64,000 nucleotides of DNA, taken from NCBI GenBank assembly GCA_004195025.1, contig SGBB01000004.1, forward strand, positions 53,478 through 117,477. Reading direction: 5' to 3'. The stretch is from Candidatus Acididesulfobacter diazotrophicus. Lineage in GTDB: Bacteria; SZUA-79; Acidulodesulfobacterales; Acidulodesulfobacteraceae. Positions 60,361 to 64,000 of this stretch are shown one piece after another. The notes under the pieces were generated by a model. That model was given only the letters and a program-made list of their open reading frames with translations, was not told where the DNA came from and ran no database searches. A program made the position numbers and the translations under genes. Numbering within the stretch: the stretch's first letter is position 1; every line of letters begins with the position of its first letter.

Positions 60361-60437
<77 letters not shown>

Positions 60438-60510
60438 TTTAAAACCCCAGCAAATAAGCACTTCAGAGTAAACCTTAAAAAATTATAATGCTAAATTTTA
60501 GTTAAAAAGT

Positions 60511-60806
60511 TATCCGATTTATTTTATCTTCTACTCCTGATTGAATTTATAAGCAATTAAAAAATCTTATTGCTTTTTTTATGTTTTTTAAAACATATAT
60601 GGAATACATTCGGAACAGTTTTTATTATTTTAAATTTCTGTTTAATATTTATGTTTAATTTTTTTTGAAATTTATTCAATTAATAAAATAAATATGTATT
60701 TAATATATATTTATTGATATAAATAATCAAGTTCTGTGTAATGAAATTTACAGAGGATAAAAACCAGCAAATGCAGGAGGGAGTAAAAGATAAAATAAAT
60801 CGGATA
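60511..60806. mobile_element. 296-bp MITE-like element bounded by about 29-33-nt inverted repeats
   Basis: Left end tatccgatttattttatcttctactcctg (60511-60539) is the reverse complement, with a small indel, of caggagggagtaaaagataaaataaatcggata (60774-60806). The terminal 20 nt are identical. No ORF lies inside. Confidence 0.55.
60551..60580 (+). terminator. Hairpin plus T-run downstream of tRNA-fMet
   Basis: aagcaat-taaaaaatctt-attgctt followed by ttttt. Confidence 0.45.
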
Positions 60807-60908
60807 GCGGTAATATGTTAATAAAAAAATTATTATAAAAAATAATTTAACGACAATTTAAATGATAAAAAAAATACTAAATAACCAATAAAAAATCCCC
60901 GCATATGT

Positions 60909-60954
60909 TGAGGAAATTTATTTTGCAATAATTAGGATTTTTTCATTGCAAAAT
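60909..60954. repeat. Left copy of 45/46-nt inverted repeat flanking the small-ORF cassette
   Basis: tgaggaaatttattttgcaataattaggattttttcattgcaaaat matches the reverse complement of 62604-62648 at 42 of 46 positions (3 mismatches, 1 indel) by hand alignment. Confidence 0.8.
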
Positions 60955-60980
60955 CCCCGCCTTTTTATTTTAAATATTTA

Positions 60981-61343
60981 TTAATTATTCTTATATTTTA
61001 TCATAACAGGCGAACCTGCGGAAACATAAAACGGCGGCGGTCCGACTGGAACATAATATGCGGGTCTTTCATAATAAGGATATATGTCATAACCGCTTTT
61101 AATATAATAATTTACTTTTCCGTAAGGAATAAACATTACAGGAGAATGGCTTCCATCAGGGAATATTTCAATAAAATACTTGCTTGATTTTGACGGAGCA
61201 TTATAATTATAAAAATATTGATATTGATTGTTATAGGCTATCTCAGGAGACATCGGCACAATAACACTATTGTAAGCGTAAACTTTTATAGAAAACAGAA
61301 ATAATCCTGATATAATTAATACAGTTAATAATATTTTTTTCAT
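60981..61343 (-). CDS. Hypothetical secreted Tyr/Pro-rich protein
   Basis: 120 aa with signal peptide MKKILLTVLIISGLFLFSIKVYA and a mature part rich in Y, P and N. No family recognised. Confidence 0.55.
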   Translation of the reverse strand: MKKILLTVLIISGLFLFSIKVYAYNSVIVPMSPEIAYNNQYQYFYNYNAPSKSSKYFIEIFPDGSHSPVMFIPYGKVNYYIKSGYDIYPYYERPAYYVPVGPPPFYVSAGSPVMIKYKNN

Positions 61344-61366
61344 AATTAGTCTCTATTGTCTTATAT

Positions 61367-61576
61367 TTATGAAGCGAAGTTAATTTTAATTTCAATTTCC
61401 GGATAAAAATATCTTACAATATCAATCTGTTCCAAATATAATCTGCTGCCGACTTTGCAATCAATTAATCCTTCTTCGCCGTCTGCTTTAGGATTATGTA
61501 AATCTTCTACTCCCGTATTTCCGGTAATTATGAAAACATTTTTTGTAATTTCTTTAATTTCTAATGTTTTTAACAT
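61367..61576 (-). CDS. Hypothetical 69-aa protein
   Basis: ORF spaced 23 nt from the downstream gene in the same strand series. No family recognised. Confidence 0.4.
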   Translation of the reverse strand: MLKTLEIKEITKNVFIITGNTGVEDLHNPKADGEEGLIDCKVGSRLYLEQIDIVRYFYPEIEIKINFAS

Positions 61577-61638
61577 TTAGATACTTGTTTTTTTAAATAA
61601 ATATATTTAATTAAGCTTAATATATTTCATCGGCATTG

Positions 61639-61890
61639 TTACTTATTTTCACCGTTTTTATTTTTAATATTGCCGTTTCCGAATTTAAATAAGTTTTTAT
61701 CTTTTGAATTTTTTATAACTACAAAATATATTATACTTCCTATTAAATTAAACAAGACGACTATTAATAACCATATAATTTTATTAGCCCCGTCCATTTT
61801 GGACTGTTTAACAATATCAATAATGGCTATAATAATTACTATAGCTCCTATAAGCCATAAAATGCCGAAACCGAAAAACATACTGAACAT
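61639..61890 (-). CDS. Small 2-TM protein resembling the PLDc_N (phospholipase-D-nuclease N-terminal) membrane domain
   Basis: GILWLIGAIVIIIAIIDIV...KIIWLLIVVLFNLIGSIIYFVV fits the pattern of stand-alone PLDc_N proteins as I remember it. Confidence 0.5.
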   Translation of the reverse strand: MFSMFFGFGILWLIGAIVIIIAIIDIVKQSKMDGANKIIWLLIVVLFNLIGSIIYFVVIKNSKDKNLFKFGNGNIKNKNGENK

Positions 61891-62220
61891 AATTAACCTC
61901 TTTTTATCTTATTTTTCGTTTATCTTAGCTTAAAATATTAAGCTTTAATTATACTGTTAATGGTGTGTTTTCTATTGCCTTAATTTATATGGCGTTTAAA
62001 TGCCATATAATGCGTTTTAAAGCGTGTTGTTTATAAAGCATTATTTATATAAAAATAAGATAAGGCTTTATAAAGTGCAAATTATCGGTTTATCAAGTTA
62101 TCCTGTCCGATTTATCTCATCTATAGAACAAAACTAATACGTTGATTTATTTTATAAAATTAAATTTTTGAGATGAATAATGTTTTTTGTTTTTAACAAT
62201 ATTATTATGGTTATTTAATT

Positions 62221-62397
62221 TTATTTCGTGTAAACATTTAATCCGATTTTTACTTCTTCCTTGCCGGATACGGATACATTGCCTTCCGTAGAAGCGATAA
62301 TAGTTGACTTGCCGCTGCTTGACTTACCGAATGTTTTAGAAAGATCAACCTTAATTGTTAAAATATCGCCGTTAACGTTCATTTCAATATTTTTCAT
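62221..62397 (-). CDS. Unlisted 58-aa ORF (MKNIEMNVNGDILTIKVDLSKTFGKSSSGKSTIIASTEGNVSVSGKEEVKIGLNVYTK)
   Basis: My own translation. It falls below the ORF-track length cut-off. GGAGA lies 7 nt upstream of the ATG. It is GC-richer than the surrounding spacer and its composition is soluble and non-repetitive. Confidence 0.55.
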   Translation of the reverse strand: MKNIEMNVNGDILTIKVDLSKTFGKSSSGKSTIIASTEGNVSVSGKEEVKIGLNVYTK

Positions 62398-62416
62398 TTG
62401 TATTCTCCATATAAAT

Positions 62417-62566
62417 TTATTTTTTAATTATTTTAACAGATTTATTTAATTTTTTCTTTGAAATATTAAAATGCGGGATAAGCATTAAATCTTTTTTAAA
62501 AGATTTTGCTTTATACCGTCTTAAATCTTCTTTGACATATTTTTCTATTATTTTTTGAATGTCCAT
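62417..62566 (-). CDS. Hypothetical 49-aa basic protein (MDIQKIIEKYVKEDLRRYKAKSF...)
   Basis: This is the likely true start inside track ORF 62417-62626. It is preceded by a TTGCAG-16 nt-TATATT promoter-like string lying in and after the right inverted repeat. It ends 19 nt upstream of the 58-aa ORF. Confidence 0.4.
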   Translation of the reverse strand: MDIQKIIEKYVKEDLRRYKAKSFKKDLMLIPHFNISKKKLNKSVKIIKK

Positions 62567-62603
62567 ATTTATATTATACCTTATAATATACTGGAATATC
62601 TGT

Positions 62604-62648
62604 ATTCTGCAATAAAAAATCCTCATTTTTGCAAAATAAATTTCCTCA
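62604..62648. repeat. Right copy of the 45/46-nt inverted repeat flanking the small-ORF cassette
   Basis: See 60909-60954. Confidence 0.8.
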
Positions 62649-62849
62649 CTATAGATAGGTATTTTTAATTGTTTAATTGTTTAATTAATAAATTTTTTAA
62701 ATTTAAATTATTTTTTAGCTTTATTTTACCCAAATTACAAGCTGATTTAATATTTGGTAATGAGCGGTTTATTTTGCGCTATCATTCGCCAGTCTTTTTT
62801 TCTCAATATAGGCAGATTATTAATTATAATACTGCCTGACTAAAAAAAT

Positions 62850-64000
62850 TTAATCAATTCTATTGTACGAATCTTCTATTCTGACTATATCGTCTTCCTT
62901 TAAATATTCTCCTACTTGCGCTTCAATCAAAACTAAAGGAATAAGTCCGGGATTTTCTAGTCTATGTAAAGAGCCTATAGGAATATATGTTGACTCATTT
63001 GATTTTAACAATATTTTTTTATCATCAACCGTTACAAGCGCGGTACCGCTCGTGACTATCCAGTGTTCTGATCTGTGATAATGCTTTTGTAGAGATAATT
63101 TAGCTTTAGGTTTAACCAATATTTTTTTTATTTTATATGCAGGAGAATCTAATAGTACTGTATATGAACCCCATGGTCTATGCACGGTTAAATGCTGAAA
63201 ATGAAGTTCGGAATTCAGTTCTTTTAATTTTTCAACCACTTTTTTAACATTCTGCGAAGAGCCTCTCTTTGAAATAAGCAATGCATCGTCGGTATCTACT
63301 ATTATTAAGTCTTCAATATCTACTACTGCTATTGTTCTACCCGAAGACAAAATCAAATTTTTTTTAGAATTGACGTTAATAAAAGAACTAATAGAATCTG
63401 AAGAATTTAATTTAGCATTATTATCGGAATCTTTTTCTAATTCGGCATATAAAGAATCAAAACTTCCCATATCGGACCACTTAATATCGGACGGTATTAC
63501 TTTAGTACTGGAAGTTTTTTCCAATAAAGCATAATCAATTGAGTTTTCTTCTATATTTAACATATCTTCCAATTTTATTCTAACGGATGTTAAATCTTTT
63601 TTCGCATTATTGTAAGCATTTTTAGCAGATTCATATAAAGAAGGGCAATATAAGCTAAGTTCATTAAGCAAAACTTCGGGGTTAAATAAAAACATGCCGC
63701 TATTCCAAAAATAGTTATTTTTAGATAAATACGCAAGCGCTGTGTCTTTATCAGGTTTTTCTTTAAAAGAATTTACGCTATAATATGGAGCGTCTTTTGA
63801 AATATTTTCTCCTTCAGTATTTGCTTCTATATAACCATACCCTATTTCAGGATGAGCCGGTTTTATGCCGAATAATACTAAACTATTGTCTTTAGCTAAA
63901 TCTTTTGCCAATTTTATTATATTTTTATAATTGCCGTCATTTTGAATTATATGATCAGACGGAGTTATAAATACAAATCCGCTTTTATGATTTTTAGTAT
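62850..64000 (-). CDS. manC: Mannose-1-phosphate guanylyltransferase / mannose-6-phosphate isomerase (type II PMI, ManC/CpsB); N-terminus beyond the right window edge
   Basis: It has the nucleotidyltransferase part (PSDHIIQND..., FGIKPAHPEIGYGYIE) and a C-terminal cupin (RPWGSYTVL, HYHRSEHWIV). The frame stays open upstream of the track start (a TTG) to position 64000. Confidence 0.85.
   Translation of the reverse strand, partial: TKNHKSGFVFITPSDHIIQNDGNYKNIIKLAKDLAKDNSLVLFGIKPAHPEIGYGYIEANTEGENISKDAPYYSVNSFKEKPDKDTALAYLSKNNYFWNSGMFLFNPEVLLNELSLYCPSLYESAKNAYNNAKKDLTSVRIKLEDMLNIEENSIDYALLEKTSSTKVIPSDIKWSDMGSFDSLYAELEKDSDNNAKLNSSDSISSFINVNSKKNLILSSGRTIAVVDIEDLIIVDTDDALLISKRGSSQNVKKVVEKLKELNSELHFQHLTVHRPWGSYTVLLDSPAYKIKKILVKPKAKLSLQKHYHRSEHWIVTSGTALVTVDDKKILLKSNESTYIPIGSLHRLENPGLIPLVLIEAQVGEYLKEDDIVRIEDSYNRID

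Follow-up and report, generated by a model that had tools for sequence, protein, structure and literature searches.

The window analysed here is a stretch of 64,000 nt from Candidatus Acididesulfobacter diazotrophicus (genome G000, contig C4, positions 53478-117477), and this report concerns five small genes in it that are bracketed by a 45-nt inverted repeat. The G000 assembly is a draft of 2.46 Mb in 47 contigs with a G+C content of 30%. The five genes lie in a variable region, the left edge of which is a tRNA-Met(CAT) gene (60361-60437, plus strand; ARAGORN and Rfam), an integration hot spot, and the right edge of which is manC (62850-64000, minus strand). The repeat was traced to the right end of an insertion sequence (IS) of the IS21 family, named IS-A here, and a second, different IS21-family element was named IS-B. 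For comparison, congeners were used, among them G001, G002, G003, G006, and G007; manC was looked for in 8 genomes of the genus, and gene co-occurrence was counted in 38 genomes of the family. The closest relative of G000 is G006, to which it is approximately 95% identical.

The plus-strand arm of the repeat occupies 60909-60954 and reads TGAGGAAATTTATTTTGCAA-TAAT-TAGGATTTTTTCATTGCAAAAT (in full, TGAGGAAATTTATTTTGCAATAATTAGGATTTTTTCATTGCAAAAT), and its minus-strand partner lies at approximately 62601-62648. A first-pass annotation of the window, made from the sequence, had reported this inverted repeat, and both arms were found at the places it gave. Their alignment contains one 1-nt gap and 42 identities in 46 positions, and no such arm-to-arm match arose in 100 dinucleotide shuffles. 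The similarity continues, more weakly, to approximately 120 nt (75.8%, BLASTN). Each arm consists of two direct half-sites together with TTGCA(A/G) hexamers. The -35-like character that had been ascribed to these hexamers is real, and an outward -35 box has been described for the right terminal inverted repeat (TIR) of IS21 (PMC10122671).

The five open reading frames (ORFs) between the arms are named by their length in amino acids, and all of them lie on the minus strand. In order of position, they are p120 (60981-61343), a Tyr/Pro-rich protein with a signal peptide; p69 (61367-61576); p83 (61639-61890), a PLDc_N protein with two transmembrane segments; p58 (62221-62397), a widely conserved standalone small protein; and p49 (62417-62566), which is basic and lineage-restricted. 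The ORF analysis thus agreed with the first-pass annotation on the number and strand of these genes. The earlier description of p83 as PLDc_N-like was upheld by Pfam (PLDc_N, 4e-10), and the interval indeed contains no transposase or recombinase gene. On comparing the genes with their paralogues, the differences at codon positions 1/2/3 were 5/5/17 for p120, 6/0/9 for p83, 3/0/11 for p58, and 2/0/6 for p49, so that four of the five show coding-type substitutions. In addition, the indels that separate p120 and p69 from their paralogues keep the reading frame. The bias toward the third codon position and the in-frame indels suggest that the small ORFs are probably real genes, and the same bias in p49 suggests that it is translated.

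The five genes do not form one unit. Module A, which comprises p120, p69, and p83 (60962-61913, minus strand), has a 92% identical copy at G000:C3:59480-60439, and that copy lacks a flanking 45-mer. Module B, which comprises p49 followed by p58 (62221-62566, minus strand), was recognized from the p49 paralogues and the p58 homologue clusters. Four further copies of p49 are present in G000 (C19:29306, C19:23795, C17:41259, and C25:22037), each of which heads a different gene set, has unrelated upstream DNA, and is without the 45-mer motif. The homologues of p49 amount to only 12 clusters in a large protein collection, which marks it as lineage-restricted, and those of p58 exceed 3500 clusters with 32 invariant positions. 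Among the 38 family genomes, p120 was found in 3, p69 in 3, and p83 in 15, and the complete set of five genes was found only in G000. In G002 and G003, p83 is present without p120 or p69. The interval is therefore a mosaic of unrelated small-gene modules, and the suggestion that the five ORFs belong together was not borne out when their co-conservation was checked. The link between the repeat and these genes also failed, because the 45-mer occurs at unrelated loci and the gene modules occur elsewhere without it. A repeat unrelated to the genes and a lack of co-conservation among the ORFs are two findings that the first-pass annotation itself had named as speaking against its proposal.

The TIRs of the IS21 family are described as repetitive: the left one is made of L1 and L2 and has a -10 box, and the right one is made of R1 and R2 and has a -35 box (PMC10122671). 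The 45-mer combines two half-sites with TTGCA hexamers; it is therefore the R2 and R1 (subterminal and terminal) transposase-binding repeats of the right TIR of an IS21-family IS. The intact element, IS-A, was found in a congener at G007:C37:1-2877, where it measures 2877 bp and has the ends TGTTTATTGCA…TTGCAAAATACA. The contig starts exactly at the left tip (TGTTTATTGCATAATATAATTACCC…) and provides no left flank. The istA gene of IS-A (258-1757) matches NF033546 (transpos_IS21) with 221 bits against a cut-off of 160 (E 2e-65), and its product is homologous to IS5376 IstA (PDB 8q4d/8b4h, E 1.4e-13). The istB gene (1741-2469) overlaps the end of istA at 1757 and matches NF038214 with 240 bits against a cut-off of 200, as well as PF01695 (IstB_IS21, 3e-59). 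It is followed by a non-coding stretch of 400 nt, after which the 45-mer motif closes the element at 2877. The left end (TGTTTATTGCA…) carries three to four TTGCAA…TCCCC units, the right end is composed of GAGGAAATTTATTTTGCAA and GGGGATTTTTTGATTGCAAAATACA, and the element as a whole runs from TG to CA. An outward-facing TTGCAA, read from the sequence alone, lies 6 nt from the right tip.

In its genes and ends, IS-A resembles IS21 and IS5376, in which istA (a DDE transposase) is likewise followed by an overlapping istB (an AAA+ helper) and the ends are of the TG…CA type with several motif repeats each; the outward, -35-like TTGCAA of its right end may correspond to the -35 box of the right TIR in IS21. 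IS-A differs from the family in the unusual length of its non-coding stretch between istB and the right end and in the lack of target duplications at the copies examined. Thus, IS-A is an undescribed member of the IS21 family, and its ends are now defined.

Further copies occur in the genus. The body of a second full copy, at G006:C147:592-3180, shares 72% identity with IS-A; this copy stops at the same limits, with one end of each type, and its flanks are unrelated. Two miniature derivatives were found in G007, namely, one of 82 nt on C77 with right-type ends on both sides (TGTATTTTGCAATC…GATTGCAAAATACA) and one on C221 in which a left-type end is joined to a right-type end. Moreover, the genus has approximately 15 solo right ends, which share a constant outer limit (IS-A 2873-2877) and extend inward to varying points between 2731 and 2821. 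In the congeners, the 45-mer is part of a conserved element of approximately 75 nt, CCAATAAAAAATCCCCAC-ATATATT-GGGGAAATTTATTTTGCAAAATT-GGGGATTTTTTGATTGCAAAATACA, and the flanks diverge right after …AAATACA. In G000, the 41-nt core has only four good copies, which are the two window arms, C13:5017, and C10:69507. The copy on C13 lies beside vapBC and is convergent with the genes. A copy of the 45-mer approximately 130 nt upstream of a tatA-like gene is kept in G006. Accordingly, the 45-mer is not private to the locus in the window, being found at C13:5017 and C10:69507 in G000 and at approximately 15 loci in the congeners.

Four other explanations of the 45-mer were considered and set aside. 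As two different istAB pairs precede it, it was considered as target DNA beside which IS21 elements insert. This was rejected because unrelated ends belonging to IS-B itself lie beyond the motif, the IS-A fragment there being nested in IS-B, because the diverged IS-A copy at G006:C147 shares both ends, and because miniature two-ended derivatives exist. A sigma-54 reading of the half-sites, based on a GG-N10-GC spacing, was discarded, the motif being an IS end in which only the GG and TTGCA positions fit. The element of approximately 75 nt was also considered as an RNA gene or terminator with the stem AATAAAAAATCCCC / GGGGATTTTTTGATT; Rfam yielded only tRNAs, and this stem is an inverted copy of R1 that is broken in both window arms. 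Finally, the integrase fragments and tRNAs near several copies had raised the idea of an att or recombination site, and they are explained by IS debris gathering in tRNA-linked islands.

The repeat in the window belongs to two longer remnants. The left remnant (60819-60957, plus strand) corresponds to IS-A 2739-2874, with 89.7% identity over 136 nt (window 60819-60954), and the right remnant (62601-62720, minus strand) corresponds to IS-A 2745-2883 (78% identical over 140 nt, rising to 92% in the last 50 nt at the tip). The left remnant contains an inverted unit (CAATAAAAAATCCCC), R2 (GAGGAAATTTATTTTGCAA), and R1 (TAGGATTTTTTCATTGCAAAAT). Its IS interior is to the left and its tip to the right, toward p120, and the tip is degenerate, ending in …GCAAAAT-CCC, not …ACA. 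The right remnant has its interior to the right, and its intact tip …ATTGCAGAATACA ends at 62601 and points left, toward p49. Both arms are, as can be read directly, right ends with the IS interior on the outer side and the tips inward. Since the tips of both remnants face the interval, the five genes lie outside both of them.

The two arms are not a duplicated pair. Over 135 nt, they are 89% (left) and 79% (right) identical to IS-A and 73% identical to each other; over the terminal 50 nt, the corresponding values are 88%, 92%, and 86%. As each arm is closer to the IS of G007 than to its partner, they are independent relics. No transposase was found inside either remnant, and no direct repeats of 4-8 bp were found at the outer edges, remnant edges, or tips of the arms. 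In comparison with the IS21 family, the window holds only two right-end stubs, and G000 contains no matching transposase.

Remnants of this kind are familiar from genomic islands on the side of tRNA genes. Like the window arms, solo IS ends in such islands lack a transposase, keep the outer tip, vary in their inner limit, and cluster near tRNA genes, integrase fragments, toxin-antitoxin pairs, and miniature inverted-repeat transposable elements (MITEs). What sets the window apart is that two stubs of the same family, in opposite orientation and 1.65 kb apart, mimic a bracketed cassette. As a side observation, solo IS-A right ends lie approximately 0.1-1.3 kb downstream of tRNA genes at four loci (L020, L022, L025, and the window), the tRNAs being tRNA-Pro in G002, tRNA-Lys in G003, tRNA-Ser in G006 and G000:C10, and tRNA-Met in the window. 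This placement is far more frequent than random placement would give, and it is likely that IS debris collects in tRNA-linked islands.

The comparison with relatives showed how the region varies. In G006, contig C1 joins 60971-61582 to 62837-63997 (BLASTN), so that the segment 61583-62836 is missing. There, p69 is directly followed by manC, and p83, p58, p49, the right arm, and the manC hairpin are lacking. Neither edge of the gap falls at an arm, and p120-p69 have the same orientation relative to manC as in G000. In G007, HPP and CBS genes replace the interval and lie between a 3' fragment of tRNA-Met and manC. In G001 and G002, tRNA-Met and manC are not neighbours. Presence/absence differences between genomes thus exist, and the segment missing in G006 disregards the repeats.

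Taken as a whole, these results make it probable that the inverted repeat consists of two IS-A right-end remnants of approximately 135 nt, independent relics that face inward across a mosaic of accessory genes, and that no unit at this locus moves or flips. The window holds two right-end remnants without a transposase, in opposite orientation and with their tips toward each other. Two or more unrelated modules, including p83-p69-p120 and p49-p58, make up the 1.65 kb between them; recombination would have brought these together in the variable region from tRNA-Met to manC, and this recombination-prone stretch would have gathered both IS debris and small-gene modules. What the repeat is, which way its arms point, the mosaic make-up of the interval, and the presence/absence differences are shown, and the course of events and any promoter activity are inferred. 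The mobile-element origin proposed earlier stands insofar as the repeats derive from an IS21-family element, and it falls for the interval, which is a mosaic with inward tips and not a cassette. No present function can be demonstrated for the arms as a pair. Only a secondary role is likely today, in which the -35 hexamer of the right remnant and a flanking TATATT drive p49-p58.

This candidate fusion promoter (62585-62612, minus strand) consists of a -35 TTGCAG in the IS tip (62612-62607), a 16-nt spacer, and, in the flank, a -10 TATATT (62590-62585). The p49 ATG follows 18 nt downstream. The earlier observation of TTGCAG followed by TATATT at 16 nt in the right arm was correct. The p49 copies lose their similarity to each other at 62592, shortly before the IS tip is reached, and the IS end therefore replaced the former upstream DNA of p49. 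The -35 hexamers of right inverted repeats (IRs) form fusion promoters, including those of IS21-family members (PMC9330008). ISKpn7 (IS21 family) upstream of blaKPC and ISBf1 upstream of cepA (PMC9330008) resemble the arrangement in the window, with an outward -35 in the right IR and a -10 in the flank beside a gene. Unlike those cases, the window has a weakly matching -35 and has lost the IS body, the downstream genes encode small proteins with no assigned function, and the candidate is known from sequence only. That the outward TTGCAG of the right remnant and the flanking TATATT form a fusion promoter for p49-p58 is a tentative proposal, somewhat more likely to be wrong than right. The left arm offers no acceptable -10 at the right spacing, and the antisense RNA once proposed to arise from it is unsupported.

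Several results weigh against this account of old IS-A ends and a promoter borrowed from one of them. Elements of the IS21 family duplicate 4-8 bp of their target (5 bp for IS5376). No direct repeats of 4-8 bp were found, with offsets of +/-3 nt, at the three two-ended copies (G006:C147, G007:C77, and G007:C221), and recent transposition by IS-A is therefore not demonstrated. The age of the copies or recombination between copies could explain this lack. In addition, the inner limits of seven solo right ends fall together near IS-A 2731-2755, which could point to a discrete unit of approximately 135 nt rather than random truncation, although BLAST limits are imprecise in DNA with 70% A+T. A 330-nt segment of the IS-A 3' region is also found inside a different IS21-family element, at G006:C151, a location that agrees equally well with nesting and with a separable module. 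As for the transposase, the best match to IS-A IstA in the 47-contig draft of G000 is only 27% identical, a result that is not proof of absence, as repeats break contigs and assemble poorly in this draft. G000 holds only two other IS21-family istA genes, one at C3:29476 and a truncated one on C12. Regarding the promoter, TTGCAG matches the consensus at 3 of 6 positions, the pair falls below the threshold of the consensus scanner, and promoter-like sites are not enriched in the region over shuffles (25 vs 20.3 +/- 4.5).

Two full inverted copies of IS-A could also have flanked the interval with their right ends inward, as a composite transposon or after a replicative intramolecular inversion, and lost their bodies later. 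Two right ends facing cargo are the geometry expected of inverted flanking copies, IS21-family elements reportedly bring about deletions next to them (PMC9330008), and the remnants are of similar length, approximately 120-140 nt. As in composite transposons of the Tn5/Tn10 type, two IS ends of the same family face the cargo in inverted orientation. In contrast to that type, the window has no IS bodies, outer ends, or target duplications, its arms are not copies of each other, and its cargo is not found elsewhere as a unit. The arms are 73% alike over 135 nt, and each is nearer to the G007 IS, which means that they are not copies from one event; two independent body deletions would also be needed. 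Furthermore, the G006 indel takes the right remnant together with p83-p49, suggesting that this remnant arrived with its neighbours, and the gene modules are found elsewhere without IS ends. Thus, a decayed composite or inversion is unlikely.

A regulatory role for both arms was also considered, in which the arms, as domesticated IS ends to which IstA or a host factor binds, would co-regulate the module from both sides, the left copy giving antisense transcription. The half-sites and hexamers in each arm agree with this idea, as does the correct spacing between the right arm and TATATT. A motif copy near the tatA-like gene is kept in G006, and IstA binding occludes the promoter elements of the TIR in IS21 (PMC10122671). 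However, the four other p49 loci have unrelated upstream DNA without the motif, the motif occurs at many unrelated loci, some of them convergent with genes (such as that beside vapBC), and the left tip is degenerate and has no suitable -10. The lack of promoter enrichment over shuffles also counts against it, and with G000 and G006 so similar, conservation at the tatA locus is uninformative. Dedicated promoter or operator duplicates for the module, one of the readings offered in the first-pass annotation, are accordingly improbable.

A broader version of this idea would take the right-end module of approximately 135 nt as a domesticated, portable promoter/operator that kept its tip and lost the IS body at a fairly constant inner limit. 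Placed downstream of tRNAs and upstream of small-protein operons and tatA, it would supply a -35 and an IstA-like responsiveness, and the inverted pair would exert convergent sense/antisense control. The chance that this is the case is judged to be slight.

The interval could further be invertible, in that either homologous recombination between the arms or a trans-acting recombinase would flip it and so switch the orientation of the gene block relative to flanking promoters. Inverted repeats of 45-120 nt do bracket the block. However, none of the 13 PF00589 (tyrosine recombinase) matches is on contig C4, and no PF00239 (serine recombinase) match was found in the assembly. Unlike Hin/Gin/Fim-type segments, the interval has no recombinase gene within or next to it. 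The arms contain indels relative to each other and share only 86% identity in the core and 73-76% over 120-135 nt, and both modules have their own upstream regions. In G006, the only genome that allows this comparison, p120-p69 keep the same orientation relative to manC. Inversion, which the first-pass annotation had also put forward, is very improbable on these grounds.

The weakest reading, a non-autonomous cassette that an IS21-family transposase mobilizes in trans through the two 45-mers, can draw on the genuine IstA-type end repeats in the arms, on the miniature derivatives of IS-A in the genus, and on the other IS21-family transposases in G000, yet it is hardly credible, because both arms are right ends with inward tips, cleavage at which would mobilize outside DNA, the left tip has lost its terminal ACA, no target duplication was found at any boundary tried, the interval between such ends occurs in no other genome compared, the modules occur elsewhere without the repeats, and the resident transposases are at most 29% identical to IS-A IstA, while the end repeats read for IS-B are unrelated.

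The significance of two orphan right ends of IS-A is small beyond annotation, as an apparent cassette bracketed by inverted repeats in an AT-rich draft genome proves to be two orphan IS ends. The defined ends of IS-A allow other copies to be masked or annotated. Moreover, before a bracketed segment is called mobile, the direction of the tips should be checked, as should the closeness of each arm to an intact IS as opposed to its partner. The possible IS-derived fusion promoter of p49-p58 is the only lead with biological content.

The small proteins themselves yielded little to annotation. In Pfam, PHROGs, and NCBIfam, no family was found for any of them besides PLDc_N for p83. Copies of p58 that are 81-86% identical occur in Negativicutes (Lucifera butyrica and Veillonellaceae), where the gene stands alone between unrelated genes. 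Such cross-phylum conservation is unusual for an uncharacterized small protein and deserves a separate study. A PDB sequence search with p58 gave no match. Its AlphaFold2 model, obtained from a shallow alignment, is of low confidence (pLDDT 67.6) and mostly beta, and a Foldseek search of this model against PDB gave no match with E <1. In the gap between p83 and p58, downstream of p58, a conserved non-coding stretch (61888-62052) with a terminator-like hairpin (61985-62010) is found again on C3 and, following p49-type loci, on C17 and C19 (BLASTN). A MITE-end fragment, TCCGATTTATCTCATCT, lies at 62106-62122.

The flanks of the interval agree with the earlier view of accessory DNA beside a tRNA gene and a MITE-like element. 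A MITE-like repeat of approximately 320 bp (60496-60825), with TIRs of 38 nt at 60511-60548 and 60769-60806, adjoins the inner edge of the left remnant. It has more than 25 copies in G000 by BLASTN, 85-98% identical, and several of these are clustered on the small contigs C39, C43, and C45. On the other side, manC, which encodes mannose-1-phosphate guanylyltransferase / mannose-6-phosphate isomerase and runs off the window end, has Pfam matches to MannoseP_isomer (3e-51) and NTP_transferase, is present in 8 of 8 genomes of the genus, and has a terminator-like hairpin at 62811-62836. The 3' half of tRNA-Met with approximately 68 nt downstream (window 60398-60505) recurs within 1 kb of tyrosine-integrase genes on three contigs of G000 (C3:34001-34107, C31:4749-4821, and C12:28244-28304), and a 3' fragment of tRNA-Met lies 1.5 kb from manC at G007:C144 (L050 472-538). 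These recurrences look like att sites of islands that target tRNA-Met.

Some minor observations concern the IS elements and the assemblies. IS-B at G006:C151 (L021 107-3204) has the left-end repeats TGTAAATCGTATAATAGAATTGACCCCC and, beyond the 45-mer motif, the right-end repeats GGGGGTCAAAT; the 330-nt IS-A fragment nested in this copy includes the right end. In G000, at least seven copies of IS-B break contigs, at C12:41330-42277 and at the contig ends of C16, C22, C25, C28, and C46. In G006, poly-C tracts of 11-16 C replace or adjoin the AAAAAATCCCC unit of the IS-A right end (L048, G006:C1 1-34; L034, G006:C69). One tract stands at a contig end, and such tracts may be either hypermutable homopolymers or artefacts of the assembly. 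Elsewhere in G000, the region C5:122000-128000 has a visibly higher G+C content and a different codon usage and carries glycogen-metabolism genes, and it could be the result of horizontal transfer or a binning chimera.

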